A stretch of 64,000 nucleotides of DNA, taken from Dehalococcoidia bacterium. GTDB lineage: Bacteria > Chloroflexota > Dehalococcoidia > Bin125. A program made the translations under genes and the position numbers. The notes under the pieces are model-generated. The model was given only the letters and a program-made list of their open reading frames with translations. It ran no database searches and was not told the DNA's origin. The DNA lies in contig OY820591.1 in the NCBI GenBank assembly GCA_963555985.3, forward strand, positions 2,112,001-2,176,000, given 5' to 3'. Positions 10,162-40,956 of this stretch are shown here, piece by piece; positions within the stretch are counted from its first letter, which is position 1, and the number at the start of each line of letters is the position of its first letter.

Positions 10162-11766
10162 TCAGCCGCCGCCGTCCTCTGTGCCGTCGCCGTCTGCGTC
10201 GTCGGCATTGTCCAGATAGCGGTCCTGGATTTCCTGCGGGATGAGCGCATTCGTCACTTTCCGCATCTGTTCAGCGTCGGCGATCTGGGGGTCGATGAGC
10301 AGGGTCATGCCATTGAAGAGGGTGACGGGGTCCAGCCTCAAGCGATCGATCAGCAACGCGCCCATCACGCCCAGGTAGGTCTGGACGAGTGGGTGGTCGT
10401 AGATGGCGAACATGATTTTTCCTTCTTCGACCCACTTGGCAAAGCCGAGGTTGAAGCCGAACGTGGCGAGCGGGACCTCGGGGTTGGGCCATTGGGCGAA
10501 GAGGATGCTGAGGCCGACGGAATCGGAGAGAGCCATCACAGCCGCAATGTCCCCCTGGGCTGTGCGTTCGAGCAAGGCGTCGGCGGCGTCAGCGCCTTCG
10601 TAGTTCCAGGTTTGGACGCTGCCGTTGGCATAGGTCGCGGCGAGGCCTTCGCAGCGCTCGTGGAGGCCGACATTGTTGGGCTCGTGGATGAGGCAGAGGA
10701 TGTCGCCCTGGGCGCCTTCCTTGTTGAACTGCTCACCGGCGATTTCACCCGCGCGGCGGTCGTTGAGGCCGATGTGGAAGCTGGTCCCGACCTCGGCTGC
10801 GGCCTCCGCACCGGAGTTGAAGGACATGACCGGAATACCGGCGGCTGCGGCTTCGGCAATGGCGGGGGCGAGCTCGTCCGGCGAGACCAGGGTGGTGGCG
10901 ATGGAGACTGCACCGTCTTCGACGCACTGCTGGATGGCTTCGGCCTGGTCCGCCACATCGCCGAACGCCTCCGCGCGCAAGTTGATGCCGAGTGTGGCGG
11001 CAGCGGTGACGGCCGTGTCGGCAGCCACGCCCCAGAAGAGATCTTCGCCGCCGTGGCTGACCACGCAGAACAGGTCGTCGCCAGCGGGCAATTGTGGATC
11101 GAGGACTTCGAACCAGTAGTGCACCCAGGTCCAACCGAGATCGGGGTTGTTGAGCAGGATGTTGTCACGGGCGAAGACCGCCGTCTCGACCACTGCGTTC
11201 GAGGTCGCCATGATCTGCGAGATTTCGCCGGCCAGGAGGCGGCGCTCGACTTCATCGGCGACGGCGTTGTAGTCATCCGTCTCGATCACATCAACACCGG
11301 TGGGGAAGGTCTCGCCGATGCCATCGCACAAGGCGCGCAGCGCGGCCTCATTGGAGTCGACCAGGCAGAGGACGGGCGCGAGCGTCTCGGGGTCGTCCTC
11401 GGCGTGGAAGTGCTCGACAAAGTAGTCGCCCATCTGCCGGCCTGTTTCAGTGAGTTGGGTGCGATACTCGTCGGCGATGCGTTCGGCTCGGGTGGCGAGG
11501 TCGAGCATGATCGACGAGCTGTACCTCACCTCTCCTGAATCGGCGTCGGGGGCGAGGAAGCGCCGCTGCGGTTTCTGCGTCTCGCCCCACTCGCCATCGT
11601 CGCCGCGCTGCTGCAAGCCGATTTCGACGCGGCCGTCATCGAGCCGCTCGACGGAGACGCGGACCTCCAGGGTTTCGTCTTCGCCTCCGTGTCCCGCGGC
11701 CCAAATGCCTCCCAAGGCAGCTGCGCCGATGAGCGCTCCGAGGCCGAGCAAAATCAGTGTGCGCAT
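10162..11766 (-). CDS. Secreted sugar-binding-like (periplasmic binding protein type I) protein, paralog 1
   Basis: Signal/TM segment, N-terminal RLDDGRVEIGLQQ module, C-terminal RbsB-like AAAAGIPVMSFNSG..HIGLNDRRAG..IYDHPLVQTY. Confidence 0.8.
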   Translation of the reverse strand: MRTLILLGLGALIGAAALGGIWAAGHGGEDETLEVRVSVERLDDGRVEIGLQQRGDDGEWGETQKPQRRFLAPDADSGEVRYSSSIMLDLATRAERIADEYRTQLTETGRQMGDYFVEHFHAEDDPETLAPVLCLVDSNEAALRALCDGIGETFPTGVDVIETDDYNAVADEVERRLLAGEISQIMATSNAVVETAVFARDNILLNNPDLGWTWVHYWFEVLDPQLPAGDDLFCVVSHGGEDLFWGVAADTAVTAAATLGINLRAEAFGDVADQAEAIQQCVEDGAVSIATTLVSPDELAPAIAEAAAAGIPVMSFNSGAEAAAEVGTSFHIGLNDRRAGEIAGEQFNKEGAQGDILCLIHEPNNVGLHERCEGLAATYANGSVQTWNYEGADAADALLERTAQGDIAAVMALSDSVGLSILFAQWPNPEVPLATFGFNLGFAKWVEEGKIMFAIYDHPLVQTYLGVMGALLIDRLRLDPVTLFNGMTLLIDPQIADAEQMRKVTNALIPQEIQDRYLDNADDADGDGTEDGGG

Positions 11767-11944
11767 TCCGATCGGTCCTTCCTGTGTGTGGTCGTGACCT
11801 CTGCTGGCTGTGTTGGCGAGTCAGTAGGTGACGCGAACATCGTTGCGAAGCCTCCGCTGGCGGGCGTCGCAGTGAAGATCACTCCTCCGCGTCCAGAAGA
11901 GACCGTCGCCAAAGTGCATAGACCCGGGCTAGAGCGTTCGAGGG

Positions 11945-11978
11945 CACGGGGAAGACGCTCGGAAAGCGCTTCCCCGTG
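11945..11978. terminator. Hairpin after paralog 2
   Basis: CACGGGGAAG(A)CGCT-CGGAA-AGCGCTTCCCCGTG; no U-tract. Confidence 0.45.
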
Positions 11979-11998
11979 CCTTCCCGTGATCACGTCGG

Positions 11999-13552
11999 TT
12001 ACTCGGTGAACATCGTGTCCACCAGTGCCTGCATGTACTCCGCGTCGGCGATTTGAGGTGCGATGAGGAGAGACATGCCGTTGAAATAGGCCACCGGGTC
12101 GAGCCGCCAGCGTTCGGCGATGACCGAGGCGACGGCAGAGAGGTAGGTCTGCATCTCAGGGTGGTCGATGATCGTGAACATCACCGAGCCATCCAAGATG
12201 GAGCGGGCCAGGCCGACGCTGAAGCCGAAGGCTCCGATTTCCAGCTCGGCCTCGCTGTAGTAGCGGGCCACGCGAGCCTCCCAGGTGCTGTCGACGGAGA
12301 GCGTCAGGACGGCGCTGAGATCGCCTTCGGCCATGCGCGCGGTGAGCTCGTCCACGGACGCGGCCGGGTCCTCGGCGGACCAGCGCTCGACGGTGCCGTT
12401 GTAGGTTTCCTCGAGGCCCATGCAGCGGTGGTGCAGACCGACGTTGTTCGGCTCGTGAATGATGCAGAGGACCGTGCCGTCGAGCTCGCGCTGGTTGAAT
12501 TCCTCGCCAGCCATGCGGCCGGCCTCACGGTCGTCCAGCGCGATGTGCAGCGCGGTACCGGTCTCGGCCGCTACGTAGGCGCCGGAGTTGAAGCTGACCA
12601 CCGGGATGTCGGCCTCCAGCGCCTCGCCGATCGCGGGCGAGAGCGCGTCCGGCTCGACCAGGGTAGTGGCGATCACGGCGGCGTCGTTGGCGATGCACTC
12701 GCGGATCGCGGCGGCCTGGTCGGCGGCGTTCGGGTGGGCGCTGAAGTCGATGCTGACGCCGAGCTGTCCGGCGGCGGCAGTACTGACTTCCGAAGCGAGA
12801 CCCCAGAACAGGTCGCCTTCTTCTTCCTCCGCGATCACATGTCCGCTGTGCGAGATCTGGCAGAACGGCGCGTCGCTGGCGGCCGGGTGCTGGTCGACCA
12901 GTTCGATCCAGTAGATCCAGGGCAGCCACTGTCCGGTCGCTTCCTCAACCTCGAGACCGAGCAGCGTGGTCTGGACGCTGGTCGTGAAGACGGCGGCGGG
13001 CGGCGCGTCGGTGAAGCGGGCAGTGAGCTCTTCGCGCAGGGCGTCGTAGTCGGACGCTTCGAGCTGCTCGACCTCGCCAGCGTAAGTGTGCGCAGCGCCC
13101 TCGCAGAGTGCGCCGACGCCGGGGTCGTTGGCGTCGACCACGCAGAGCAGGACGCCGAGTTCGGCTGCGCTCTCCGCGCCTTCCTCAGCTTCTCCGCTTT
13201 CGCTGAGGTAGTCGGTGAAGATCTGGCCGATGTCTTCGCCCTGATCGAATAGGTAGTCGCGGTAGTCGCTCGCCGCTCGCTCCTGCTGCGTCTCAACCGG
13301 AATCACGACCTCAGAACTGTGGTACCGCGTGCCCGTTTCGGCATCGGATGGCAGGAAGCGCGCCTCCGGATGCGCTAGTTCTTGCCACGCGCCGTCTGCG
13401 CCTTGTTGTTGCAAGCTCACCTCAACCCGCCCGTCATCATGACGGGTCAAGGTGGCGCGAACGGTGACGTCACCGTGGTGCGCGGACAGTACCGCGCCCA
13501 GCGCCGCCGCGCCGATCAGGATTCCCGCAACGAGGATCAAGATTGACTTCAC
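11999..13552 (-). CDS. Secreted sugar-binding-like protein, paralog 2
   Basis: Same architecture; GTG start after GGAGG. Confidence 0.8.
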   Translation of the reverse strand: MKSILILVAGILIGAAALGAVLSAHHGDVTVRATLTRHDDGRVEVSLQQQGADGAWQELAHPEARFLPSDAETGTRYHSSEVVIPVETQQERAASDYRDYLFDQGEDIGQIFTDYLSESGEAEEGAESAAELGVLLCVVDANDPGVGALCEGAAHTYAGEVEQLEASDYDALREELTARFTDAPPAAVFTTSVQTTLLGLEVEEATGQWLPWIYWIELVDQHPAASDAPFCQISHSGHVIAEEEEGDLFWGLASEVSTAAAGQLGVSIDFSAHPNAADQAAAIRECIANDAAVIATTLVEPDALSPAIGEALEADIPVVSFNSGAYVAAETGTALHIALDDREAGRMAGEEFNQRELDGTVLCIIHEPNNVGLHHRCMGLEETYNGTVERWSAEDPAASVDELTARMAEGDLSAVLTLSVDSTWEARVARYYSEAELEIGAFGFSVGLARSILDGSVMFTIIDHPEMQTYLSAVASVIAERWRLDPVAYFNGMSLLIAPQIADAEYMQALVDTMFTE

Positions 13553-13574
13553 GGCAAACCTCCAAGTGAAATCC

Positions 13575-13604
13575 AGCCTCGACGCCCGCGCGGGCGTCGA
13601 GGCT
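13575..13604. terminator. Perfect 30-bp palindrome between paralogs 3 and 2
   Basis: AGCCTCGACGCCCGC-GCGGGCGTCGAGGCT. Confidence 0.5.
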
Positions 13605-13630
13605 TAGGGGCGTGTTGGGCAGCGCACATG

Positions 13631-15175
13631 CTACTCCGCGTACATCGAGTCGACGACCCGCTGCATGTACTCCGCGTCCGCGATCTGGGGGCGGATCAGC
13701 AGCGACGCGCCGTCGAAGTAGGTCACCGGGTCCAGCCGCCAGCGCTCGGCCATGACCGCCGCGACGGTCGACATGTAGGCCTGCAGCTCCGGATGGTCGA
13801 GGATCGTGAACATGACCGAACCGTCGAGTACGCCGCGAGCTAGCCCGACGCTGAAGCCGAATCCGGCGACCGGCACAATCTCGCCCCGACGCCAGTTGAC
13901 AACCCGCGCGTCCCACGCGCTGTGCACGGAGAGCGTGAGCATCGCGCTCACGTCTTCCTCGTCCAGTCGCTCCCTCAGCTCAGAGCGCACCCGAGCCGGG
14001 TTCTCTGCCGACCAGCGCTCGACATCGCCCTGATAGGTCTCCTCAAAGCCGTCGCAACGTTCGTGCAGTCCGACGTTGTCCGGTTCGTGCAGAATGCAAA
14101 GCGCCGTGCCCTCGATGTCGCGACGATTGAACTCTTCGCCGGCGATGCGGCCCGCCTCATGATCATCGAGCGCGATGTGCAGCGCCGTGCCGATTTCATC
14201 CGCGGCCACTACGCCGGAGTTGAACGAGACCACCGGGATGTCGGCGGCGAGCGCCTCGTCAATGGCCGGAGCAAGCTCGTCAGGCTCGACCAGCGTGGTC
14301 GCGATCGTGGCCGCGCCACTGTTCACGCACTCGCGGATGGCCGCCGCTTGATCGGCGACGTTGCTGTGCGCGCTGAAATCAACGTTGACTCCGAGTTGCG
14401 CCGCCGCCGCAGTGCTGACCTCGGCCGAGAGACCCCAGAAGAAGTCGTCCTCGTCCTCGATCACCGTGCCGCTGTGGGTGATCTGGCAGAACTGCGCATC
14501 GGCAGACGCCAGGTGCTGATCGAGCAACTCGATCCAGTACGTCAGTCGCGGCCGGTAACGGGCCTTATCCCGGACCTCGAGCGCGAGCATGGTGGTCGGC
14601 ACGCTGGTCGTCAGCATGGCGACCGGCGCCTGCACGGCCATCCGCGCGCGCAGCTCCGCGCGCAAGTCGTCCCAATCGTCATGTTTGACGCGCACGACCG
14701 GTCCGCGATACACGGATTCGACTCCATCGCAGAGCGCCTCGACCCCCTGGTCGTCCGGATCGATCACGCACAGGAAGCGACCTGGTTCGAGTTCGGGATA
14801 GTTGGAGTCGGTGAAGCGATCGTTGTATCGCGCGGCGATGCGGGCGCCGGCGGTGACGAGGTAGTCGTAGTACGCGCTGGTAGTGCGCTCCTCGTGCGTT
14901 TCCACCTCAACGGCGACCTCGATAGTAAGCGCGTCGGTCTCGAGCGTCTCGCCGACATCGGCGCCGGCCGCCAAGAAGCGGTTCTCGGGCCGCTGCGTCT
15001 CGCCCCAGACACCATCGCCGTCGAGTTGCTGCAATCCGACTTCAACACGGCCGTCTTTGAGACGCTCGGCGGTGATCCGCACGTCCGTCGTGCCGATCTG
15101 GGTGGCGGCCCAGATCGCGCCCAGCGTCGCGGCGCCGATCAGGAAACCAAAGCCGATCAGGATCAGGGAACGCAT
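13631..15175 (-). CDS. Secreted sugar-binding-like protein, paralog 3
   Basis: Same architecture; start MRSLILIG after AAGGA. Confidence 0.8.
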   Translation of the reverse strand: MRSLILIGFGFLIGAATLGAIWAATQIGTTDVRITAERLKDGRVEVGLQQLDGDGVWGETQRPENRFLAAGADVGETLETDALTIEVAVEVETHEERTTSAYYDYLVTAGARIAARYNDRFTDSNYPELEPGRFLCVIDPDDQGVEALCDGVESVYRGPVVRVKHDDWDDLRAELRARMAVQAPVAMLTTSVPTTMLALEVRDKARYRPRLTYWIELLDQHLASADAQFCQITHSGTVIEDEDDFFWGLSAEVSTAAAAQLGVNVDFSAHSNVADQAAAIRECVNSGAATIATTLVEPDELAPAIDEALAADIPVVSFNSGVVAADEIGTALHIALDDHEAGRIAGEEFNRRDIEGTALCILHEPDNVGLHERCDGFEETYQGDVERWSAENPARVRSELRERLDEEDVSAMLTLSVHSAWDARVVNWRRGEIVPVAGFGFSVGLARGVLDGSVMFTILDHPELQAYMSTVAAVMAERWRLDPVTYFDGASLLIRPQIADAEYMQRVVDSMYAE

Positions 15176-15250
15176 AATTCCGTCCTTTCGCGTCGAACGA
15201 TATCGCTGTCGTTCTAGCATCCACTCCCGGTAGGGGGAGCCGGGAGCCAG

Positions 15251-16852
15251 TTAGCGGCGACGATGCTCCAGATCGTCGAGGAAGGTCTGAGCGTATTCCG
15301 CATCCCAGACTTCAGGCTGGATGGTGATCCGCAGGTTGTGCAGATACGACGCCGGCAGACGCAGGCCATCCACGTACAACAGCGCCGCGACCGCCAAGCG
15401 CGATTGCAAATCAGGGTAGTCCGGAATCGCGAACAGCATCCGTCCGTCGGCGACTCCGCGATAGATGCGCGCGTCCAGACCGAAGCTGGCCCAGGACATG
15501 TCGATCAGCTCACCGTCCTCTGTCAATTGCCAGATTCGCCGCGAGATGGAACTGTTCAGCGTCAGCAGCGACCCGACGCCTCCCTCGCCAATCCGCTCAA
15601 GGATCGCGGCCTCGATCTCGCCCGGTCCTATCAAATCGTGCACCCGCAGACGCTCGACCGCGCCGCTGTACGTCTCCTCAAGGCCGTCGCAGCGTTCTTC
15701 GAGGCCGATGTTGTTCGCCTCGTGGATGACGCAGAGCACCGTTCCCTCAATCTCGGCGGCGCTGAACGACTCTCCGGCCAGGCGTCCGGCTTCGTGGTCG
15801 TCTATGCCCAGGTGCAGCGACGATCCGCCCTCGGCGGCGGTGTCCGTGCCTGAGTTGAAGCTGATCACGCGCGTCCCGGCTGCCCGCGCCTCGGCCACAG
15901 CCGGGCCGATCGCCTCGGCGTCGCCGAACGTCGTCGCCACCGCCGCCGCGCCGTCCTCCACGCATTCGCGGATCGCGCCCGCCTGTTCCGCGCTGTCGGC
16001 GTAGCTGGCGATCCGCGGCGACAGCCCTAGCTGGGCCGCCGAACGCTCACTGACCTCGTTCGCCAGACCCCAGAAGAAGTCGCCAATCTCGCCCCGGTGC
16101 GTGACGACGCAGAAGAGCTCGTCGGCTTCCGGCAGGAGCGGCGTCACCGGCGTCGCCCAATAGAGCATCGGCGTATCAAGCTCGTTCGCCTTGCGCGCGC
16201 GGCCGGCGACAACAGCGGCGAGATCGCCCGTCGCGATCATCCCGTAGCCGTCGGCGTTCAGCAGCCAGTCGCTAATCTCGCGCTCCGCCGCCGCCAGGTC
16301 TTCGCCAAGCAACAACCGATCCACCTGCCCCGCGTACGAGCCCGCCAGACCCTCGCAGAGCAGATCAATCTCCTCCTCCACCAGTCCGTCCGAGATGCAG
16401 AGAAGCGGACGCAGCGGCTCGCCCGCCTGCTCCTGCACGCCCGTCCACCACCGCGCCGGCAGCGTGCCCGACTCCAGCCAGAACTCATGCACCTGACTCG
16501 CGATCGCTTCGGCGTGAGTCGCCGCCGACACCGCGATCTGCGAGCTGTGATAAGGCTGGCCCGATTCTGCCTCGAGGGACAAGAAGCGCGCCTCCGGACG
16601 GATCGTCGCGCCCCAGCCCCCGTCGGAATCTTGCTGTTGAAGTCCGACTTCGACCCGGCCATCATCGTGGCGTTCGGCCACGAGCCGGAGCTTGATACTC
16701 GATTCGGACGGTTCGCGCGCCTCGGCGCTGACGGATGGGGCCTCTTCGAACATCATCGGTCGCAACGCCGCACCCAGCGCAAACGCCGCCAGCAGGCTGA
16801 AGACCATGATCATCCAAGCTGCACGGGTCGGCAGTGCTCGAAAGTTGCGCAT
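15251..16852 (-). CDS. Secreted sugar-binding-like protein, paralog 4
   Basis: Same architecture; start MRNFR after GGAAGGA. Confidence 0.78.
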   Translation of the reverse strand: MRNFRALPTRAAWMIMVFSLLAAFALGAALRPMMFEEAPSVSAEAREPSESSIKLRLVAERHDDGRVEVGLQQQDSDGGWGATIRPEARFLSLEAESGQPYHSSQIAVSAATHAEAIASQVHEFWLESGTLPARWWTGVQEQAGEPLRPLLCISDGLVEEEIDLLCEGLAGSYAGQVDRLLLGEDLAAAEREISDWLLNADGYGMIATGDLAAVVAGRARKANELDTPMLYWATPVTPLLPEADELFCVVTHRGEIGDFFWGLANEVSERSAAQLGLSPRIASYADSAEQAGAIRECVEDGAAAVATTFGDAEAIGPAVAEARAAGTRVISFNSGTDTAAEGGSSLHLGIDDHEAGRLAGESFSAAEIEGTVLCVIHEANNIGLEERCDGLEETYSGAVERLRVHDLIGPGEIEAAILERIGEGGVGSLLTLNSSISRRIWQLTEDGELIDMSWASFGLDARIYRGVADGRMLFAIPDYPDLQSRLAVAALLYVDGLRLPASYLHNLRITIQPEVWDAEYAQTFLDDLEHRRR

Positions 16853-16988
16853 CGAAATTTCCTTCCCGAACGGAAACGGCAGCCGTATGCAAAGCGATCG
16901 CTCGTCGTGAGGCCTTATCTTATTCGCCGACGCAATCCAATCGCTCCGCGCGGGTATCGTTCGCGCGGCGCCGTAGAGGGAGCCGAAC

Positions 16989-17795
16989 ATGTCAGGAGCA
17001 CTTGACGGACAGGCAGCACTGATCACCGGCGGCGCCAGCGGCATCGGAGCCGCCTGCGCAGTGCGCTTCGCAGAGGAAGGCGCGGATGTCCTCCTCGCCG
17101 ACCTGCTCCCCGACCGCGCCGCCGACACGGTGGCGGCAGTCGAAGCGCTGGGCCGGCGAGCCGTGGTCGTGGCCTGCGACACCTCGACCGAAGCCGACAA
17201 CGATGCCGCAGCGCAGCGTTGTGTGGACGAGTTCGGCCGGCTCGATGTCGTCGTCGCCGCCGCCGGTGTCTCGACAGCCGACTACGTGTCGGGCGAAACC
17301 GCAGAGTTGGATGAGGACCGCACCGCGTCGTTTATCGCCAACCAGAATGTCGAGCACTGGGAGAAAGTGCTCGCGGTCAACCTGACCGGCGTGATGCTCA
17401 CCGACCGCTCCTGCGCGCGCAAGATGATTGAGCTCGGCAACGGCGGCTCGATCATCAACATCGCCTCGATCATGGCCAAGTTCCCCCAACCGGGCGCAGC
17501 CAACTACTGCGTCTCCAAGGCCGGCGTCTGGATGCTGACTAAGGTGCTCTCGCAGGAACTGGTGCCGGAGGGCATTCGCGTCAACGCCATCGGCCCTGGT
17601 TTCATCGAGACGCCGATGACGGCTGCCATCTCCGGTCACGAAGAGCTCAATCAGTGGGTGCTTGGCCTCACCCCCATGCGCCGCTTCGGACAGCCCGAGG
17701 AAGTCGCCAAAGTCGCCCTCTTCCTCGCCTCCGACGAAGCCTCCTACGTCAGCGGCGAAATCATCCACCCCGACGGCGGCTGGTTCACCGACTAA
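16989..17795 (+). CDS. SDR family oxidoreductase
   Basis: TGGASGIG, YCVSK. Confidence 0.95.
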   Translation: MSGALDGQAALITGGASGIGAACAVRFAEEGADVLLADLLPDRAADTVAAVEALGRRAVVVACDTSTEADNDAAAQRCVDEFGRLDVVVAAAGVSTADYVSGETAELDEDRTASFIANQNVEHWEKVLAVNLTGVMLTDRSCARKMIELGNGGSIINIASIMAKFPQPGAANYCVSKAGVWMLTKVLSQELVPEGIRVNAIGPGFIETPMTAAISGHEELNQWVLGLTPMRRFGQPEEVAKVALFLASDEASYVSGEIIHPDGGWFTD

Positions 17796-20701: not shown

Positions 20702-20731
20702 ACCGCAGCAGACAACAGGGAGGAATCAACA

Positions 20732-21790
20732 ATGAAACTCGGACTCTCGTTGGGCTACTCGGGCGCATACATGTCGCTGCCCGTCGATCTCGTCCGCCGC
20801 GCGGAGGAGCTGGGCTACGACTCAGTCTGGACGGCTGAGGCCTACGGCTCCGACGCCTTCTCGCCGCTGGCCTACCTGGCCGCTGTGACCGAGAAGATTC
20901 GGCTCGGCACCGGGGTGATCCAGCTTGCGGGGCGGACGGCTGCCAACGCTGCGATGACAGCGGCGACGATCGACGCGCTGGCCGGCGGCGACCGCGTGAT
21001 TCTCGGGATCGGAGTCTCCGGTCCGCAGATCGTCGAAGGCTGGTACGGCGAGCCGTGGGGCAAGCCCAACACCAGGATCCGCGACTACGTCGCGATCATC
21101 CGCAAGATTCTCGCCCGCGAGGAACCGGTCACGCACGACGGCAAAGAAATCTCACTGCCCTACCAGGGTCCCGGCAGCGCCGGACTGGCCAAGCCGCTCA
21201 AGTCGATCCTGCACATGAATCCCAACATCCCGATCTGGCTGGGCACCGGCACCGAGATGAACGTGCGCATGACCGCTGAGGTCGCCGAAGGCTGGCTGCC
21301 GCTCGGCCTGACGCCCTACAACGCCGACCTGTTCGAGCCCTGGGTCGAAGAGGGCTTCAAGCGCGCCGAGGCCAAGTCCGACTCGCCGAAGTGGTGGCCC
21401 GACTTCGAGGTACAGTCCTCCGCCGAGGTCGAAATCACCGACGACCTGCGCGACGCCTTCCGCAAGATGAAGCCGAACGTCGCCCTCTACGTCGGCGGCA
21501 TGGGTCACCGCACGCTCAACTTCCACAAGATGTCGATGATCCGCCGCGGCTACGGCGACGCCGCCGAACGCATCCAGGAGCTCTACCTCGCCGGTCGCAA
21601 GGCTGAAGCGATCGAGGAGGTTCCCGAAGAGTTCCTCGACGAACAAGCGCTGCTCGGGCCGCCGGCCAGAATCCGCGAGCGCTACCAAGCCTGGGCCGAT
21701 AGCTACATCACCGGCCTCACGGTCAGGACAAACCAGCCCGAAGCGGTCGAGCTGATGGCCGATCTAGCCAGAGAGTCGTCGGGCGCGTAG
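20732..21790 (+). CDS. LLM-class, probably F420-dependent, oxidoreductase
   Basis: GYDSVWTAEAYGSDA, LGIGVSGPQIVEGWYG. Confidence 0.92.
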   Translation: MKLGLSLGYSGAYMSLPVDLVRRAEELGYDSVWTAEAYGSDAFSPLAYLAAVTEKIRLGTGVIQLAGRTAANAAMTAATIDALAGGDRVILGIGVSGPQIVEGWYGEPWGKPNTRIRDYVAIIRKILAREEPVTHDGKEISLPYQGPGSAGLAKPLKSILHMNPNIPIWLGTGTEMNVRMTAEVAEGWLPLGLTPYNADLFEPWVEEGFKRAEAKSDSPKWWPDFEVQSSAEVEITDDLRDAFRKMKPNVALYVGGMGHRTLNFHKMSMIRRGYGDAAERIQELYLAGRKAEAIEEVPEEFLDEQALLGPPARIRERYQAWADSYITGLTVRTNQPEAVELMADLARESSGA

Positions 21791-22234: not shown

Positions 22235-23167
22235 TCAGTCGCGGCCGAACGCCGCACGCAGTTCGGCCGCAATCTGGTCGAGGGCCTGGTTACCTTCGGG
22301 CACGGCCTGGAACGCACCCACGAAGCCGTGGATCACACCGTCGTAGCGGGTGCAGCTTGACTGGTTGCCGGCGGCGGCGAGGGCAGCGGCATAGGCTTCG
22401 CCTTCGTCGCGGAGCGAGTCGTACTCGGCGGTGATGGTCAGGGCTCTGGGCAGGTTGGAGAGGTCGTCGGCTCGGATCGGCGAGGCATAGGGCTGCGATC
22501 CCTCGGACTCGTCGTTCAGATACAGATCCCAGAACCAACGCATCCCCGCCTCCGAAAGACCGTACTCGCCGCGACCGTTGACCTTGTAGGACTCGGTCTC
22601 GAAGTTGAAGTCCGTGACCGGATAGATCAAGATCTGGGCAGCAATCTGCGGCCCGCCCCGATCGCGCGCCATCTGCGAGACCACGGCGGCCAAGTTGCCC
22701 CCGGCCGAGTCCCCGGCCACTGCGATCTGGTCGCTCGGGCCGCCCTGCTGGGCGTACATGCCGGTGATCCACTCGAGCGCCGCGTAGCAGTCCTCAGCCG
22801 CCGCCGGATAGGTCGCCTCCGGCGCGAGCCGATAGTCAACCGACAGCACGCTGGTCGGAACCCGGTTGCAGAGCGCTCGGCAAACCGCGTCGTGCGAGTC
22901 GAGGTCGCCGATCACCCAGCCGCCGCCGTGGAAGTAGACCACGGTCGGCAAGTCGCGCGGGTCGTCGGTGGGCAGGTAGCCGCGAGCGGGGATATCGCCG
23001 GCCGGTCCGGGGATGACCATCTCGTGGACCTGGGCGACGGGTTCGGGCTCGCCCTGTGGTCGCAGCGCGGCCATGGCCTTACGAGCTTCCTCGGGCGACA
23101 GTTCATTGAATGGCGTCGCGCCGGCTCGCATGTCAAGGATGGCCTGAGTTTCAGCGGTGACGGGCAT
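22235..23167 (-). CDS. HSL-family esterase/lipase
   Basis: HGGGW, GDSAGG, EYDSLRDEG, HGF. Confidence 0.93.
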   Translation of the reverse strand: MPVTAETQAILDMRAGATPFNELSPEEARKAMAALRPQGEPEPVAQVHEMVIPGPAGDIPARGYLPTDDPRDLPTVVYFHGGGWVIGDLDSHDAVCRALCNRVPTSVLSVDYRLAPEATYPAAAEDCYAALEWITGMYAQQGGPSDQIAVAGDSAGGNLAAVVSQMARDRGGPQIAAQILIYPVTDFNFETESYKVNGRGEYGLSEAGMRWFWDLYLNDESEGSQPYASPIRADDLSNLPRALTITAEYDSLRDEGEAYAAALAAAGNQSSCTRYDGVIHGFVGAFQAVPEGNQALDQIAAELRAAFGRD

Positions 23168-23232
23168 GGTGTCTCCTGTCGGTTGACTCTTGCGCTCCCC
23201 TCGCAAGGGGATGTCCACGCATCATCGAGATT

Positions 23233-23351
23233 CCGTCATTGCCGCGCTCCGCCGCGGCAATCTCGCCTTGTTGTGCACCGACGGCCGTGCCGAACACAGC
23301 CAGATACCCGCGGCAAGCGCGGGTATGACGGTGGTATGTGGGCAGGTCTCC
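23233..23351. repeat. Family-A REP doublet with one MITE-like end
   Basis: CCGTCATTGCCGCG...GGGTATGACGG followed by GGCAGGTCTCC. Confidence 0.82.
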
Positions 23352-23354
23352 TGT

Positions 23355-24281: not shown

Positions 24282-24353
24282 GGATCACGCCTTTCTTCGT
24301 CAGTGTCTACGGATTGCGCCGCTTTGGTGCGCAGCGTGCGGGCAGGATAACCG

Positions 24354-25945: not shown

Positions 25946-26052
25946 CAGCGTCTTCCAATCTGCTGCCTATACTCCGACTGGCTGCGTGAGTACCCGCAGT
26001 GTATTCGGCGGCGCTCCCAAAACGTGCACCGCCTCCGGATAAGGACATCCCG

Positions 26053-31325: not shown

Positions 31326-31410
31326 GTCTTTGCTCCTCTGATCGGGCGGGCGAGTCCTGCAACGAGTGTCAGGATACTCCCCGTTTAGACTTGCGCGGAG
31401 GAGGACGACG

Positions 31411-32685
31411 ATGCCCCATCACGTCAAGAGCAAGGCCCTCTCGCATCTGCGCATCTGCGATTTCACCGGACAACTGGCCGGCGCGGGAGCCACCAAATTC
31501 ATGGCCGCCTTCGGAGCCGAAATCATCCGGATCGAAGACCCCTCGAACCACGGCCGCTGGGACATCCTGCGCGGGATGCCGCCCTATGTGGACGACCGCC
31601 GCGGCCCTGAGCTGGGCGGGCCGTTCAACAACCACAACGTGGGCAAGCTGGGCATCACGCTCAACATCAAGACCGAAAAGGGGCGCGAGCTGTTCGAGCG
31701 CCTGGTCGCGATCTCGGACTGCGTGACCGAGAACTTCTCCTCCGGCGTGATGCGCTCCTGGGGCTACGACTACGACGCGCTCAAGCAGATCAAGGAAGAC
31801 ATCATCTACGTCTCCAACTGCGGCTTCGGGCACTCGGGGCCGTACGAGAAGTTCAAGACCTGGGGGCCAATCGTCCAGGCGACCAGCGGCCTCACCATGT
31901 CCTCTGCTATCCCCGATCAGCCGCCCGCCGGTTGGGGCTACTCCTACATGGATCACACCGGCGCCTACTTCATGGCGATGGCGATCATGCTAGCGATCCA
32001 CCATCGCAACCGCACCGGCGAGGGTCAGTACGTCGATGTGGCGGCGACCGAGGCGGCGCTGACGCTGAACGGACCAGTGCTGCTCGATTACACCGTCAAC
32101 GGACGCCCGCTGCGGCGTGAGGGCTATCCCGACGCCAACCACTCGCAATTCCCGGCGATGGCCCCGCACAACATCTACGCCGCCAAGCCGATTCCCGGCT
32201 CGTTCGACGAAGCCTGGATCGCCATCGCCTGCCGCAACGACGAGGACTGGCACGCGATGCGCGACGTGCTGGTCGCCGACGGCTGCGATTGGGCGTCGAA
32301 CGACGACTATGGCCAACTCGCCGGTCGCTTGGCCGCGCAGGATGTGCTGGACGAACGAATCGGCGAGTGGTGCCTGCGCCGCGATCCGTATCAGTCCACT
32401 GAGATGCTGCGCGAGGCCGGGGTGCCGGCCAATCCGGTGCAGACACCTGAGCAGCGGATCGACCAGGACGTCAACTCAGCCGAGGCGCGGCTCTGGCCGA
32501 CGATTCGGCAAGCGGAGATGGGCCGCGTGCGCGTGGACGGGATTCCCGCGCATTTCTCCAAGACCGACTGGTCGATGACGCGCGGCGCAGCCGTGCTGGG
32601 TGAGGACAACGATTACGTCTACGGCGAACTCCTGGGCCTGAGCCAGGACGAGATCGCCGGGCTCTACGAGGAGGGCGTGCTCTGA
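31411..32685 (+). CDS. CaiB/BaiF family III CoA-transferase (Asp-containing subunit)
   Basis: FGAEIIRIE, ENFS.GV, SYMDHTG. Confidence 0.92.
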   Translation: MPHHVKSKALSHLRICDFTGQLAGAGATKFMAAFGAEIIRIEDPSNHGRWDILRGMPPYVDDRRGPELGGPFNNHNVGKLGITLNIKTEKGRELFERLVAISDCVTENFSSGVMRSWGYDYDALKQIKEDIIYVSNCGFGHSGPYEKFKTWGPIVQATSGLTMSSAIPDQPPAGWGYSYMDHTGAYFMAMAIMLAIHHRNRTGEGQYVDVAATEAALTLNGPVLLDYTVNGRPLRREGYPDANHSQFPAMAPHNIYAAKPIPGSFDEAWIAIACRNDEDWHAMRDVLVADGCDWASNDDYGQLAGRLAAQDVLDERIGEWCLRRDPYQSTEMLREAGVPANPVQTPEQRIDQDVNSAEARLWPTIRQAEMGRVRVDGIPAHFSKTDWSMTRGAAVLGEDNDYVYGELLGLSQDEIAGLYEEGVL

Positions 32686-33941
32686 TGACGACCAACTCCA
32701 ATCCGCTGGCGATGATGGCGCTGGACGACCTGCGCGTGCTCGAAATCGGAGACGAGCGCGGCGCCTGGTGCGGCAAGCTGCTGGCCGACATGGGCGCGGA
32801 CGTGATCAAGATCGAGCCGCCCGAGGGCGATCCGTCGCGGCAGTACGAGCCGTTCGTCGACGACCAACCGCATCACGAGCGCTCGCTCTTCTTCTGGTAC
32901 TACAACACGTCCAAGCGCAGCGTCGTGCTGGACTTCAACGACCGCTCGAACGCGGATGCGTTCCTCAAGCTGGTCGAATCCGCCGACATCATCTTCGACA
33001 CGAATACGTACGATCCTGTCGGTCGCCTGGGGTTGGACTACGACCGGATCATGTCGGACAATCCTGGCCTGATCTGGTGCACGATCACCAACTTCGGCTT
33101 CGGCTCGGTGCGGGACGACGAACCGCATACGGACCTGACCCTAGCCGCCAACGGCGGCTTCGCCTGGATGAACGGCTATGACGACCACTCGCTGCCGCCG
33201 GTGCGCGGCGGCGGCCAGCAGGCCTATCACACCGGCTCGAACTACGCCTTCATGTCGATCCTGACGGCGCTGCTGCACCGCGACGCGACCGGTGTGGGAC
33301 AGCACATCAACGTCAATATCAACGCCTCGGTCAACGTGACCACTGAGGCCGGGTCGTACTCGTGGCTGGTCTCGCACTCGACCGTCCAGCGCCAAACCGG
33401 GCGCCACGCCGGCGTCGCCCCATCCATGCCCTCCCAGATACAGTGCGCCGACGGTCGCTACGTCAACACCGGCATCCCGCCGCGGCGCCCGCGCGAGTTC
33501 GGCCTGGTTTACCAGTGGCTGGAGGAGGAAGGTCTGCTGGACGAACTGCCGGAAGCGGCGCTGTTGCAGGTCGGGGCCGAACTGGAGAGTTTCTCGCTGG
33601 CGGATGTCTTCAGCGGCAACAACGAAGAGCTGCTGGCGATCTTCGGGGCTGGTCGTGAGGCGTTCGACCTGCTCGCCTCCAGGCTGACGGCGTACGAGTT
33701 CTTCACCAAGGCGCAGAATTACGGCTTCCAGGTCGGGGTGATCCACAGTCCCGAAGAGGCGCTGGAGGATCCGCATTTCGTCGATCGGGGGATGCAGGTC
33801 AAGGTGGAGCATCCCGAGATCGGGCGCGAGGTGGTCTATCCGGGCGCGCCCTACCAGCTCACGAAGGGGAGTTGGGGGATCACTCGGCGTCCGCCGCTCC
33901 TCGGGGAGCATACGGACGAGGTGCTGTCGGAGCTGGGCTAG
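32685..33941 (+). CDS. CaiB/BaiF family III CoA-transferase (partner subunit)
   Basis: LLADMGADVIKIEPP.GD, NTSKRS, PPLLGEHT; overlaps the upstream stop. Confidence 0.92.
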   Translation: MTTNSNPLAMMALDDLRVLEIGDERGAWCGKLLADMGADVIKIEPPEGDPSRQYEPFVDDQPHHERSLFFWYYNTSKRSVVLDFNDRSNADAFLKLVESADIIFDTNTYDPVGRLGLDYDRIMSDNPGLIWCTITNFGFGSVRDDEPHTDLTLAANGGFAWMNGYDDHSLPPVRGGGQQAYHTGSNYAFMSILTALLHRDATGVGQHINVNINASVNVTTEAGSYSWLVSHSTVQRQTGRHAGVAPSMPSQIQCADGRYVNTGIPPRRPREFGLVYQWLEEEGLLDELPEAALLQVGAELESFSLADVFSGNNEELLAIFGAGREAFDLLASRLTAYEFFTKAQNYGFQVGVIHSPEEALEDPHFVDRGMQVKVEHPEIGREVVYPGAPYQLTKGSWGITRRPPLLGEHTDEVLSELG

Positions 33942-36466: not shown

Positions 36467-36641
36467 GTCGGGGTCCTTCCTAGGTGCGTTCGCACTGGTT
36501 GGGTGGATCGTTGCCGGCGGAATTTTTTTCCGGCGCGGCAGATTGCGAGGAAACCTAGTGATTTACGGGAGATCGCGCGATTTGGGTGGAAGGTAGTGGA
36601 AGATTTTGGAACGGTGTTGTCAGTTCGGAGCGTCAGCTCCT

Positions 36642-36751: not shown

Positions 36752-36801
36752 AGGGAGATGAGGGGCGACGCGAACGGATTGGCGGATGGATTCCCGCCTG
36801 C

Positions 36802-36956: not shown

Positions 36957-37145
36957 CTGCGCGGGAATGACGGGATTGCCTGTTGACCGGCTCGTTCAGC
37001 CGCTTTTTCGGCGAGGGTCGAGTGGACATCGGCTCCTCGGTTTCCGTCTGCGACACGGAACTCACGTACTCTCACTAGCGGCGGCGATCAAGGCCGGGAG
37101 TTCACCGATACCTCGCAGGGCGACTGAGGGGAGCGCTTACTTCCG

Positions 37146-38399
37146 CTAGTCGCCCGATCCCGCCGCCGCGGCCGCAGCGATGCGGGCCTTCGCGGCCTCG
37201 TCGTAGCTGATGCTGACCGGCGGCTCGGAGTCGAACGGGCCGTCCAGATCGAGTTCGGCACCGATCTCGCGCAGTGCCGGCATGACCTCGGTACCGAGCA
37301 GCTCGATGCAGCGCATCGAGTCCCCGTGCGTGACGCGACCGTCGTTGCCCCAGAGGGCGAGGATGCCCGGCCGGGTCTCTTCGAGGATCGTGCGCAGTTT
37401 GACGATGCACTCGTCCGGCGTGCCCGCGATGATCTGCATGTTGTCGAGCTGTGTCTCGAAGTCGAGTGCGCGCGGCGGCGGGCGGCGACCGTTCATCACC
37501 TCCACCAGCGCCTCGCGGTTGCGCGGCGAGGCGTAGCCGGCCGGGTTCGACCAGACCGGGTGCGCCAGTCCGGTGAACTCGCCCTGCATCCACATGAACT
37601 GGGAGGCGTTCTCCAGCGCCTTCTCAGTCGTGTCCGCGACATGCACGCGGAGCAGGTAACCGCGATTCTCGGGGCCCGGGTCGTAGCCAACCTCGTGCGC
37701 CGCGTCGTCGTAGGTGTTCCAGATGCGCTTGGTCGCCTCGATCGTCGTGTTCAGCGCGATGTACGGGTAGCGATGCTTCGCCGCCCAGATCACGGTCTCG
37801 CGCGAGAGCACGCCCGGAATCCAGATGCGCGGATGCGGCTGTTGCAGCGGCAGCGCCCACGGGTTCACGACCCGGTGCTGGTAGTGCTTGCCCTCCCAGC
37901 GGAACGGGCCAGGCCGCGTCCAGGCCTCCACGATCAGGTCGTGAGCCTCCTCGAAGCGCTCGCGGTTGTAGGCCGGGTTCACGCCCGTCGCGAGCTGTTC
38001 GGTGCCGCCTCCGCGCACGAAACCGGAAACTAACCGACCCTGCGAGATCATGTCGATCATCGCCAGCTCTTCGGCCAGCCGGATCGGATTGTCGGCCAGC
38101 GGCAGCGGATTGCCGAGCAGGACGATCTTCACCCGCTCGGTCGCGCCGGCAAGCACCGAGGCCCAGATGTTGCACTTGGCCTGCATACAGAAGGGCGCGT
38201 TGTGGTGCTCGTTGAGCATGATCCCGTCAACGCCCACCTCCTCCGCCAGCTTGTACTCGGTCAGGCGGTGGTTGTAGAGCTCCGCGCCCGCCTCCGAGTC
38301 GAAGTTGGAGTTGGAGAAGAGCAGCGCGGTCACCCCCTCCTCGGCGGCGTGCTCGTCGTAGGCCGACATCGGCTGTTCGGTGAAGTACATCAGGTGCAT
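37146..38399 (-). CDS. LLM-class flavin-dependent oxidoreductase
   Basis: DGIMLNEHH, RLAEELAMIDMIS.GRL, QQPHPRIW. Confidence 0.92.
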   Translation of the reverse strand: MHLMYFTEQPMSAYDEHAAEEGVTALLFSNSNFDSEAGAELYNHRLTEYKLAEEVGVDGIMLNEHHNAPFCMQAKCNIWASVLAGATERVKIVLLGNPLPLADNPIRLAEELAMIDMISQGRLVSGFVRGGGTEQLATGVNPAYNRERFEEAHDLIVEAWTRPGPFRWEGKHYQHRVVNPWALPLQQPHPRIWIPGVLSRETVIWAAKHRYPYIALNTTIEATKRIWNTYDDAAHEVGYDPGPENRGYLLRVHVADTTEKALENASQFMWMQGEFTGLAHPVWSNPAGYASPRNREALVEVMNGRRPPPRALDFETQLDNMQIIAGTPDECIVKLRTILEETRPGILALWGNDGRVTHGDSMRCIELLGTEVMPALREIGAELDLDGPFDSEPPVSISYDEAAKARIAAAAAAGSGD

Positions 38400-38471
38400 G
38401 GGAGGCTCCAGTCACGATCAGATCGAGTCGCGCGCAGTCTAGCGCTCCCGCCGCGTTGCTAGGCTGAGGCG

Positions 38472-38750
38472 GTGATCACACACTTCGCTGATCGGCGGCT
38501 TCGAGATTTCCATATGCGGGGAGACCGTCGCAGGTTGCCGCCGCCGATGATCGAAACCATTGAGGAGATTCTGGACGACCTGGATTCGGCCTCGTCGCCA
38601 GAAGACATGAACCAGCCCGGCTATCGACTGCACCAATTGTCGGGAGACATGGCGGGATTCTGGTCTGTTCGCGTCACCCGCAACTGGAGAATCGTGTTTC
38701 GCTTCGACGGACCAGACGTCCGCGATGTACGCTTAATCGACTACCACTAG
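38472..38750 (+). CDS. higB: HigB toxin
   Basis: PGYRLHQLSGD..GFWSVRVTRNWRIVFRF, DYH. Confidence 0.92.
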   Translation: MITHFADRRLRDFHMRGDRRRLPPPMIETIEEILDDLDSASSPEDMNQPGYRLHQLSGDMAGFWSVRVTRNWRIVFRFDGPDVRDVRLIDYH

Positions 38751-38764
38751 GGGGATCAGTCGCT

Positions 38765-39049
38765 GTGACTCGAGCCAATCCAACCCATCCTGGTCGCTCT
38801 CTCTTCCATAGCTGCATTGAGGCGCTCAACCTCACGATGTCCGAGGCAGCGGCGCATCTCAAGGTGGAGGAGGCCGCCCTACAGGCCATCTGCGACGGTC
38901 AGGCGCCGATCACCGCCGACATGGCCGTCCGCTTCGAGCAGGCTTTCGGCAGCACCGCCGAGTTCTGGCTGCGGCGCCAGGCCAGCTACGACCTCGCGCG
39001 AGTGAGGAAGACCTGCGACAAGATCGAGCGTCTCGAAGTCGCGGCCTAA
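38765..39049 (+). CDS. higA: HigA antitoxin
   Basis: HPG, HTH, ITADMAVR, FWLRRQASYDL. Confidence 0.92.
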   Translation: MTRANPTHPGRSLFHSCIEALNLTMSEAAAHLKVEEAALQAICDGQAPITADMAVRFEQAFGSTAEFWLRRQASYDLARVRKTCDKIERLEVAA

Positions 39050-40956
39050 CGCCCGCAGCGAGCAAGATTCGGCTGCACCGGCGTCTCGAACAGGCCGTCG
39101 AGGTCGAAAGTGGAGGTATAGCGGCGGTCGGGATTGTCGCGCTCGTGAGCCTCAACAGTGAACACGCCATCGGCCCGGGCTGCCCACGCCAGTTGTGAGA
39201 TCAAGTCACGGGCGTCTTCTCGCCCTGTCCATTTGTATTCGGTATCGCCCCAGCTTCCCCAACCCGAGCGCCACTCTTCGCTCTGCACCTCGCCACCGTC
39301 GATACGGTACAGAATCGTCCAGTCCAAGTCGGCCTCAACCTGCCAATAGATATCCACTTCCAGCCGATCACTCCCGCACTGAACAGACAGTCGCGCTTCA
39401 CGACCGGTCTGGCCGATCGCAGTGTCCATCGCGACAAAAGAACGAAAATCGCCGCTCTCCTCATCGGCGTATGCGCCCCACCACATCTCATCATCACCGC
39501 CCCAACCGATGTACAACCCTGACATCTCTTCGTCGAGTCCTCCTAACATCGCGCCCGATGCTGCGTCGCACAAATCAGGCCAACTGCCCTCCAATCGTGG
39601 ACTACAGAACAGTTCGCCAATTGCGCCGCTCGCCTCACTATGCCTGGCTCGTACTGGTGGACGCGACGCAATCTCAATGCCGTAGCGCTTCGCCTCATCT
39701 CGGGCAGCATCGACATCAGCGATCGGGAAGTAACGTTCCCACAGACTGAGCAACATGGCGGTGAACGCACCGCCGTGCCCGGCATCCCTCACGCTTGCCT
39801 GATCGACGATCGAATGGGCTAACTCGTGGACGACTGCGCCCAGGTTACGAACCTCCGTACCGAGTGTAATCTCGTCCCGACTGGCGTGACCGTGAGATTG
39901 TTCGCTGCTGAATCGGACCGTCGGCGGAGTGCTGCGAGGAAAGTAGTCGGCGAAGATCGCGTTCACGACTCCTTGCGCCTCCGAGCGAGTTACATCGATC
40001 TGATCCAACGATGTACCGATCTGTCGCGACTCCCAAGCGTAGGCGGCATTCTGTTGCACATCACAATCGGACGTCGGACAGATTGTGACCAGCGGAGCGC
40101 TCCCGTGACATCCCTCAGATGCAGTGTCCACAAGGATGTGCTCAGTCAGAATGTCAAGATCCAGCACTCCGCAACGAGTGCGATAAGTCCGCCCGTCAAC
40201 CTCAAGGTCAAACTCGCCGTCGCGCGTCGTGATCGATGCCCCGCGCCGCAATTCGCCGAAGGCGTGCCCAGACAACGGAGGCAACTGGAAAGCAGAAGTG
40301 AATCGCCAGGTATTGCGGGAGAGTCCGGTCAGCACCGGGCGTGTCGGCTGGCGCAACGCCTCCCATTGACCGTCACCCAGACGCTGTACGCCCAACTCGA
40401 TCCCGCCTGTTGAGAGGCGCCGCGCCGAGATCCGGAGCACTTGTGTGCCGACATCGGTTGGATTGGCCAACTCAGGCGGTTCCACAGTGACGACGTCTTC
40501 GCAGTTCCGCGTGCCGGTCTGCATCTCCAGCCCATCGTCGTTAAGCGACAGGATCAGTCGCCCGCAGCGAGCGTGGTAGCGAGTATCGCCGAGCGTAACC
40601 GTGAATTGCTCCGGTCCCGCCTCGTTGGACCATCCTCGATTGAGCACACTGATCTCGGCTCTAGCTTGGACAACCTCGATTTCAACGCCTGAAGTGGTGT
40701 GCCAACGATCGGCGACGGCCGCGGCCGACAATATGTTTCGCGTCGGCGTTGCGAATCGCCAGCGACCGTCCACGCGGTATTGCAGCCCCACCGACACAGA
40801 GCCGTCGGCATTGGCGCGAGCCGCGAGCCTGATCTCCGCGCCGACCGGAGCCGACTCCGCTCCACTACGGATCGGAACGAACAGCAGCCCCCCGCCGATC
40901 AGGACGACAATCGCCACGATCCAGACGAAGCGAGGCTGGCACGGAACGGAACGCAT
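39046..40956 (-). CDS. Secreted multidomain protein with two copies of the shared module and an HExxH metallopeptidase-like domain
   Basis: TM/signal WIVAIVVLIGGGLLF; VHELAH..GHGGAF; start overlaps the upstream stop (TGATG). Confidence 0.7.
   Translation of the reverse strand: MRSVPCQPRFVWIVAIVVLIGGGLLFVPIRSGAESAPVGAEIRLAARANADGSVSVGLQYRVDGRWRFATPTRNILSAAAVADRWHTTSGVEIEVVQARAEISVLNRGWSNEAGPEQFTVTLGDTRYHARCGRLILSLNDDGLEMQTGTRNCEDVVTVEPPELANPTDVGTQVLRISARRLSTGGIELGVQRLGDGQWEALRQPTRPVLTGLSRNTWRFTSAFQLPPLSGHAFGELRRGASITTRDGEFDLEVDGRTYRTRCGVLDLDILTEHILVDTASEGCHGSAPLVTICPTSDCDVQQNAAYAWESRQIGTSLDQIDVTRSEAQGVVNAIFADYFPRSTPPTVRFSSEQSHGHASRDEITLGTEVRNLGAVVHELAHSIVDQASVRDAGHGGAFTAMLLSLWERYFPIADVDAARDEAKRYGIEIASRPPVRARHSEASGAIGELFCSPRLEGSWPDLCDAASGAMLGGLDEEMSGLYIGWGGDDEMWWGAYADEESGDFRSFVAMDTAIGQTGREARLSVQCGSDRLEVDIYWQVEADLDWTILYRIDGGEVQSEEWRSGWGSWGDTEYKWTGREDARDLISQLAWAARADGVFTVEAHERDNPDRRYTSTFDLDGLFETPVQPNLARCGR

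Follow-up and report, generated by a model that had tools for sequence, protein, structure and literature searches.

A lineage-restricted module of ~55 residues, predicted to pair, at the ends of exported proteins in Dehalococcoidia

A stretch of 64,000 nucleotides from a Dehalococcoidia bacterium (GenBank assembly GCA_963555985.3, contig OY820591.1, positions 2,112,001 to 2,176,000), here called the window, encodes six copies of a module of ~55 residues in five exported proteins. The module defines a real and uncatalogued domain family that is restricted to one lineage and whose placement follows a clear rule. Four of the five carriers are paralogous solute-binding proteins with one copy each, and the fifth, a protein with a HEXXH motif, contains two copies. 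The original prediction, made from the window alone, had placed the six copies in five secreted proteins, directly behind the signal segment in the four binding proteins, and all of them were located by a profile hidden Markov model (HMM) and in an alignment of the window copies (alignment A1). The copies of the four binding proteins share 42 to 50% identity, the two of the HEXXH protein share 27 to 29% with the first copy, and residues R7, G16, Q23, D28, G29, W31, P37, and L42 are invariant in all six. The four binding proteins score 54.5 to 90.2 bits against the Peripla_BP_4 model (PF13407), whose gathering cut-off is 35.1, and the match covers their C-terminal ~240 residues, with the module outside it. 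New relative to the original prediction are the predicted pairing of the module and its restriction to one lineage.

An HMM built from the six window copies alone retrieved 26 further open reading frames (ORFs) of the same genome at an E value of ≤1e-5, which indicates that the resemblance among the modules is not due to chance. After two HMM rounds, 45 domains were found in 36 stop-to-stop ORFs of this genome. Two of these ORFs are located on small contigs that duplicate chromosome regions, leaving 34 carriers, or ~1% of the genes of the 3.33-Mb genome, and roughly two-thirds of the carriers contain a single copy. A profile (A2) made from an alignment of 42 copies of this genome was compared with 1.84 billion representative proteins and matched 1,744 of them at E ≤ 1e-3, 1,419 at E ≤ 1e-10, and 386 at E ≤ 1e-30. 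The module thus extends far beyond the set of binding-protein paralogs in which it was first noticed.

At E ≤ 1, the five window proteins gave no Pfam or NCBIfam match that fell on the module, and the module was likewise unmatched in a total of 122 carriers, comprising the 5 window proteins, 29 further proteins of the own genome, and 88 of the 150 best-scoring representatives. Each of the 42 copies was also scanned separately at E ≤ 10, which gave only isolated one-copy matches to unrelated families (4 in Pfam and 2 in NCBIfam), the best having E values of 0.065 in Pfam and 0.057 in NCBIfam. None of the 42 copies matched the SLH model (PF00395) or the Pfam G5 model. The module therefore lies outside the known Pfam families, as the original prediction had supposed. 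In the ESM Atlas, the best score (0.76, to a cluster without a name) was under the useful level. A PLL lectin was retrieved by a sequence search of the PDB at E 0.005, with no stretch passing alone, and was rejected as a resemblance at the level of a hairpin. Full-text literature searches on the surface and exported proteins of Chloroflexi and SAR202 brought up no such module among the papers listed.

Outside one family-level lineage of Dehalococcoidia (Chloroflexota), the module is rare. Whole-genome searches detected it in 18 of 24 further genomes from the same family, at a maximum of 66 matches in one genome, and in none of 16 genomes representing 16 other families of the class. Among 300 other Chloroflexota genomes, for each of which the best 20 candidates were scored, at least 5 contain the module, and these belong to two genera. 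A scan for a sequence pattern, covering one genome per species, yielded 74 loci, of which 72 are in metagenome-assembled genomes (MAGs) titled Dehalococcoidia, Chloroflexota, or Chloroflexi, 1 is in an Acidimicrobiia MAG, and 1 is in a "bacterium"; the pattern was derived from a 10-copy alignment and is specific to one subtype, so this taxon list is biased. The isolate names in the titles resemble those of MAG sets that we take to be from marine sponges.

The proteins that bear the module are of many kinds, all of them extracytoplasmic. In the own genome, the module is joined to Peripla_BP_4 (16 unique proteins), Peripla_BP_6, one protein matching SBP_bac_6/11/8/1, AhpC/TSA, Cu/Zn superoxide dismutase (Sod_Cu), an HtrA-like protease (Trypsin_2), a Cache sensor, two RCC1-repeat proteins (RCC1_2), a lactonase-type propeller, and, just under the cut-off, Peptidase_M23, while six carriers match no family. 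The cargo of the 88 scanned representatives includes LRR, RCC1, cadherin, Calx-beta, ankyrin, Big_2/5/9, PPC, CAP, M10 (matrixin), Trypsin_2, thioredoxin, fn3, and Spondin_N domains, and in 2 of the 88 (P0029 and P0085) SLH domains occur beside the module, with the SLH matches outside it. An export signal is present in every complete carrier read and is lacking only in an N-terminally truncated ORF (L018), which agrees with the original suggestion of a module confined to exported proteins. The fusion of the module to eukaryote-like LRR, ankyrin, cadherin, CAP, Spondin_N, and fn3 domains, together with its conserved Trp and Arg positions, would suit an outward-facing, adhesin- or lectin-like domain by which a symbiont binds the matrix or glycans of its host, and a predicted structure of two tandem modules gave faint Foldseek matches to galectins (E 8e-3, TM-score 0.13). 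However, these galectin matches have root mean square deviations (rmsd) of 14 to 15 Å and carry no weight, the module adjoins the signal rather than forming the distal tip, and it is equally common on housekeeping envelope proteins (binding proteins, superoxide dismutase, HtrA, AhpC, M23, and the Cache sensor), which makes a role in host binding improbable.

The module is located at the ends of its carriers. In 118 of the 150 best representatives, the first module begins within 45 residues (typically 7 to 19) of a hydrophobic N-terminal 17-mer; in 16, the last module ends within 12 residues of the C terminus; and 17 show internal or other placement or are apparently truncated. A positional profile of 156 carriers (34 ORFs of the own genome and 122 representatives), counted backwards from the module start, comprises an Arg-rich stretch, ~17 hydrophobic residues, a stretch rich in Ala, Gln, and Ser, and acidic residues at positions -3 and -1, a layout that suggests a cleavable Sec signal. 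A plain A-x-A/Q-type site (the slash marks the site) occurs a few residues before the module in four of the seven representatives that were examined whole. In addition, four proteins of the own genome with pairs of modules at the C terminus have canonical signals with polar c-regions (ARA/D, AHA/D, AKA/Q, and LSA/Q), and no other hydrophobic anchor was seen in these four. The window proteins have a basic tip, a hydrophobic segment of 18 to 22 residues, and the module ~5 to 25 residues further; this segment is long and nearly contiguous with the module, and its sequence is compatible with both a cleaved signal and an uncleaved anchor. A type IV pilin-like signal was also considered and rejected, with no G/(F/M)xxxE motif seen by eye in 34 N termini of the own genome.

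Carriers of the module do not carry a lipobox. The original prediction had pointed out that the carriers of the window lack a lipobox Cys, whereas a protein with a GH3 N-terminal domain (24354-25478, minus strand) has a classic one (...ALVGC/GDDD), which confirms the use of lipoprotein anchors in this part of the genome. The exclusion holds on the larger scale: a crude scan with the expression [LVI][ASTVI][GAS]C at the signal end found a lipobox in none of the 36 carriers of the own genome and in none of the 150 representatives. The own genome encodes Lgt and at least 18 ORFs with a classic lipobox, none of which is a module carrier; their Pfam names include Peripla_BP_6 (three), SBP_bac_5 (three), OpuAC, NMT1, ZnuA, Peripla_BP_2, fasciclin, and NfeD, among others.

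The split is also seen within the Peripla_BP_4 proteins. In the own genome, 17 of the 19 Peripla_BP_4 matches (16 of 18 when the duplicate contig is counted once) have the module; only the two module-less copies adjoin a permease and an ATPase, and of these two, one has a lipobox-type VSAGC sequence and the other a plain hydrophobic anchor. In a genome of a sister genus of the same family that has no module match (G005), all three Peripla_BP_4 ORFs encode a lipobox and, after it, a linker rich in Pro and Ala. In a module-rich genome (G007), three Peripla_BP_4 genes beside an ORF that looks permease-like by eye lack the module, and six others have it. This distribution indicates that Peripla_BP_4 proteins have either a lipobox or a signal plus module, and never both. 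No orthologs of the binding core of paralog A were found in five genomes without a module match at E ≤ 1e-10.

The module is confidently predicted to fold as an all-β domain. AlphaFold2 applied to A2 gave a single module with a predicted local distance difference test score (pLDDT) of 91 and a predicted template modeling score (pTM) of 0.72, consisting of a long β-hairpin and a conserved, mostly irregular C-terminal half. A construct comprising the signal and tandem modules of a protein of the own genome, with 41 relatives aligned, was predicted with a pLDDT of 95 to 98 over both modules and a pTM of 0.69. No fold can be assigned to these models, and they have no convincing relative in the PDB. 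For the single module, the best Foldseek match had an E value of 0.65, and VIA-align found no chain at Z ≥ 5, the best being RpfB (Z 3.6, rmsd 6.3, 46 aligned), with SasG (Z 3.0) and Aap (Z 2.8) below it, all in the noise range. For the tandem, the galectin-level values given above (E 8e-3 at a TM-score of 0.13) were the best from Foldseek, and VIA-align found three chains at Z ≥ 5 and none at Z ≥ 8. The best of these is the S-layer protein SlaA of Sulfolobus (Z 6.2, rmsd 5.8 Å over 114 residues), a value within the common range of noise; the link was rejected, and S-layer binding, which the original prediction had offered as an example, finds no support in the fold.

The elongated β-domains among these matches raise the possibility that the module holds the cargo at a distance from the membrane, as a passive and rigid stalk or spacer comparable to the G5/E repeats in the staphylococcal proteins SasG and Aap. 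The module lies near the membrane in most carriers, and the G005 lipoproteins, which have no module match, have long Pro/Ala-rich linkers at the same position. However, the fold matches on which the likeness would depend have Z values of 3 to 3.6, the tandem model appears compact and not rod-like, as judged by the sandwich and barrel folds that it matches, and one or two units of 55 residues would provide little reach. A spacer would also have nothing to space at the C-terminal end, where the module is found in 16 of 150 representatives, and we consider a stalk function to be of low probability.

The evidence supports a pair as the functional unit, in cis in tandem proteins or in trans between single-copy chains. 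Two copies are present in 130 of the 150 representatives, four in 15, three in 4, and one in 1, and the median spacing between copies is 8 residues, although the list was ranked by summed score and so favors multi-copy proteins. The prediction of a homodimer of the single module scored 0.67 compared with 0.06 for the best control, with the runs sharing at least 97% of contacts and with a partner pLDDT of at least 80. Among proteins of solved structure, 20 of 30 pairs and 1 of 23 single chains reach the mark used for this score; the mark is only approximately calibrated for a run on a custom alignment such as this one, so the pass supports binding and does not show it. The predicted symmetric interface is formed by the first strand and the C-terminal segment and covers the conserved residues R7, G16, P37, R40, L42, and S54-S55.

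We tentatively read the module as a pair-forming, non-lipid unit of surface retention, or "address," at a likelihood somewhat short of even. A protein exported by the Sec pathway would carry the module at one end, behind the signal or at the extreme C terminus. Two copies would then pair, either within one chain or between two single-copy chains such as the binding proteins of the window, and the paired module would retain the exported protein at the envelope of a single-membrane cell, in the role that the lipobox plays for other exported proteins of this genome. Solute-binding proteins of single-membrane cells need tethering. The family profile suggests that the signal is cleaved; if so, the module is the sole candidate tether of the binding proteins, and the C-terminal pairs on proteins with cleavable signals also point to retention. 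In addition, a module that is lineage specific, abundant, joined to many types of cargo, terminal, repeated, and never combined with a lipid anchor has the pattern of SLH-like retention modules.

The main rival explanation is that the module is purely a juxtamembrane dimerization domain, in which the hydrophobic segment would remain uncleaved as an anchor and the module would pair chains or their halves and bind no envelope component. The passing homodimer prediction and the even copy numbers suit this explanation, and the single-copy carriers include Cu/Zn superoxide dismutase, Cache sensors, and HtrA, which belong to families that are usually dimeric. The hydrophobic segments of the window proteins are also of transmembrane length and share a small-residue motif, LIGAAxLG, that recurs in the superoxide dismutase fusion. 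However, dimerization alone leaves three observations unexplained, namely, the C-terminal tandem pairs on proteins with canonical cleavable signals, the signal-peptide-like profile with A-x-A/Q sites in many relatives, and the strict exclusion of the lipobox, since lipoproteins could dimerize too. A purely dimerizing module is therefore unlikely, though less so than a stalk or a host-binding domain.

Several observations weigh against the retention reading. PDB fold searches of the module gave no match of its fold to a known wall-, membrane-, or S-layer-binding domain. If the window segments of 18 to 22 residues are kept as membrane anchors, retention needs no module. Pure anchoring would also be redundant in the Cache sensor, which would be membrane bound anyway, and in the two of 88 representatives where true SLH domains stand beside the module. 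The two-copy count comes from the score-ranked list described above, whereas about two-thirds of the carriers of the own genome are single copy, and the homodimer calibration is approximate. The net charge of the module is not conserved: 265 of the 333 representative copies are positively charged, whereas 27 of the 45 copies of the own genome are negative, including the four binding-protein copies of the window (-3 to -7). This argues against one simple electrostatic ligand, and the idea of such a ligand was rejected.

The retention reading can be compared with known anchoring systems. Like the module, SLH domains (PF00395) are ~55 residues long, occur in small tandem sets at the N or C terminus of Sec-exported proteins of many functions, and hold these proteins noncovalently to the envelope of cells without an outer-membrane anchor, which is the role that we infer for the module. 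Unlike the module, which is predicted to be all-β, SLH domains are helical; no sequence match to them was found in the 42 copies, they come in threes rather than in twos, and true SLH domains co-occur with the module in P0029 and P0085. Lipobox/Lgt anchoring is used in the own genome for cargo of the same classes (Peripla_BP_6 and other binding proteins) and also acts directly behind the signal, and the two are mutually exclusive; however, it is a covalent lipid anchor, whereas the module is a folded domain without Cys or lipid that would hold its cargo by another means. The G5/E stalks of SasG and Aap and the G5 domain of RpfB are also small surface modules made only of β-structure and gave the best, though weak, single-module fold matches, but the module has no Pfam G5 match and its copies pair side by side in the predictions instead of forming long head-to-tail rods. 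LysM, SH3b, CWB2, and choline-binding repeats are similarly promiscuous, terminal, repeated, and specific to an envelope type, but no Pfam or PDB sequence or fold match links them to the module, and the taxonomic range of the module is far narrower.

The lineage restriction, the many types of cargo, and the terminal placement would also fit a sorting signal for a dedicated secretion or attachment machine, analogous to the C-terminal domains of the type IX secretion system (T9SS) or to sortase and exosortase signals. However, the module occurs at either end and in multiple copies, unlike known sorting signals, and no conserved neighboring machinery was seen in the window or at two other loci of the own genome (L010 and L097). 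No NCBIfam/TIGRFAM sorting-signal model (LPXTG, PEP-CTERM, or T9SS C-terminal domain) matched the five window proteins (E ≤ 1) or the 42 copies. A sorting signal is thus very improbable. The original prediction of a portable anchoring or sorting module is borne out in that the module is portable, extracytoplasmic, and uncatalogued; no dedicated sorting machinery was found, and anchoring is the tentative reading given above. The same prediction also raised an undescribed surface-display system, of which no dedicated machinery was found beyond the module itself. In a form of display peculiar to this lineage, the paired β-module would bind a lineage-specific envelope component and so hold Sec-exported proteins on a single-membrane cell, replacing lipid, sortase, or SLH anchoring. 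It would serve housekeeping envelope enzymes and also, in these probably sponge-associated Dehalococcoidia, eukaryote-like proteins of the LRR, ankyrin, cadherin, and RCC1 types. We regard this as possible but doubtful.

About 1% of the genes in these uncultured Dehalococcoidia share a domain that is absent from the libraries, and annotations therefore miss a common feature. If the module is a retention tag, it would provide a simple sequence rule for surface-located proteins, including the eukaryote-like repeat proteins, which are thought to mediate host contact in sponge symbionts. If display is its function, the "surfaceome" of the symbionts would be readable with one HMM alone. It would then also be a new, protein-based alternative to the lipid anchoring of solute-binding proteins in single-membrane bacteria. 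The module is a small, confidently predicted fold without a solved relative and with predicted self-pairing, which should make it accessible to structure work and biophysics.

The features of the window that carry or adjoin the module are listed in the table.

Table. Module-bearing genes and module copies of the window. Positions are those of the window; module coordinates are the HMM-aligned cores derived from the HMM search of the genome; i-E, independent E value; aa, amino acids.
Feature	Positions	Strand	Details
Binding-protein paralog A	10162..11766	-	534 aa; export signal, module, ~130-aa region without assignment, Peripla_BP_4 core; PF13407 E 2e-25, aa 236-468
N-terminal hydrophobic export segment of paralog A	11695..11760	-	22 aa
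Module copy 1 (paralog A)	11503..11667	-	HMM aa 52-106 of stop-to-stop ORF, i-E 4e-21; alignment A1
Binding-protein paralog B	11999..13552	-	517 aa, GTG start; PF13407 E 7e-22
Module copy 2 (paralog B)	13301..13465	-	HMM i-E 2e-20; hydrophobic segment 13481-13546
Binding-protein paralog C	13631..15175	-	Likely start ATG 15175, ORF open from 15220; PF13407 E 2.9e-23
Module copy 3 (paralog C)	14918..15085	-	HMM i-E 7e-20; hydrophobic segment 15104-15169
Binding-protein paralog D	15251..16852	-	Likely start internal ATG 16852; PF13407 E 1.7e-14
Module copy 4 (paralog D)	16529..16693	-	HMM i-E 7e-21; hydrophobic segment 16763-16822
Exported HEXXH protein	39046..40956	-	~636 aa from internal ATG 40956; signal, 2 x (module + ~75-aa two-Cys segment), VHELAH motif, C-terminal region
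Module copy 5 (HEXXH protein, diverged)	40675..40836	-	HMM i-E 2e-16; hydrophobic segment 40876-40929
Module copy 6 (HEXXH protein, diverged)	40282..40437	-	HMM i-E 2e-12

The longer ORF of paralog D, reaching to 17200, would overlap the short-chain dehydrogenase gene on the plus strand (16977-17792). Between the module and the Peripla_BP_4 core, paralogs A to D have a region of ~130 residues with two conserved Cys residues (LCxxD...ALCxG). The region has no Pfam match, lies at ~11065-11485 (aa ~95-235) in paralog A, and is missing from the shorter module-bearing paralogs of the genome. The HEXXH protein matched no family above the cut-off, the only matches being weak ones to SprT-like (E 0.09) and TIGR04338 (E 0.04). 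Its repeat unit, present twice, exceeds the module and includes the ~75-residue two-Cys segment; its VHELAH motif is zinc-protease-like, and its C-terminal region is Trp rich and unassigned.

The paralog array of the window has no adjoining transporter genes, its neighbors encoding a 2-oxoacid:ferredoxin oxidoreductase, a short-chain dehydrogenase, and an M20 peptidase. The arrangement at 6712-17281 recurs in G007, which belongs to another genus (loci L122-L126), where the oxidoreductase is 86% identical and a binding protein shares only 35% identity with paralog A over its full length, module included, which indicates that the array is conserved and fast-evolving. A second array, at L010, contains five module-bearing paralogs amid genes for penicillin amidase, an aminotransferase, and copper amine oxidase. 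The 17 module-bearing Peripla_BP_4 matches among the 19 appear as "orphans," with no transporter genes adjoining in the two arrays inspected (window 10162-17281 and L010). A single sugar-type BPD_transp_2 permease adjoins the two module-less copies (L097:5103-9170), and the other six permease matches are near Peripla_BP_6 lipoproteins. Many of the binding proteins may share one transporter or serve no transport.

The window also encodes paralogous pairs of luciferase-type monooxygenases and CaiB-type CoA-transferases and three Abhydrolase_3 esterases (paralogous-family coordinates 20702-21787, 37149-38411, 31342-33938, 22238-24284, and 25990-26979). This gene content agrees with that of SAR202-type genomes, for which excerpts of Bayer et al. 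(2018; PMC6306507) describe luciferase-type monooxygenases, CaiB-type CoA-transferases, and short-chain dehydrogenases. The same excerpts report peptidoglycan genes to be absent from the sponge SAR202 genomes of that study. In the own genome, six Mur_ligase_M matches, one cluster among them, were found (C1:1767958-1774848, 1058781-1059440, and others), and peptidoglycan synthesis looks present. Elsewhere in the window, an Eco57I/N6_Mtase-type restriction-modification protein (1542-4622, minus strand; 1,027 aa) adjoins a rhomboid protease gene (4879-5787, plus strand).

Of the duplicated regions of the assembly, C3:3905-5146 duplicates C1:2546052-2547293, and C5:4222-5703 duplicates C1:1359578-1361059 with a few differences. 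These small contigs represent assembly redundancy or a strain mixture, and the contamination estimate is 7.5%. The truncated ORF L018 (C1:2348652-2349293, plus strand) has a module copy without the first strand and without an export signal; it directly follows the gene of a DUF3179 lipoprotein and has probably arisen by truncation or a frameshift. The AhpC/TSA carrier L022 (C1:3127966-3129057, plus strand) has a plain cleavable signal (ASA/Q) and, upstream of its clear module copy, another that is degenerate (i-E 0.059).

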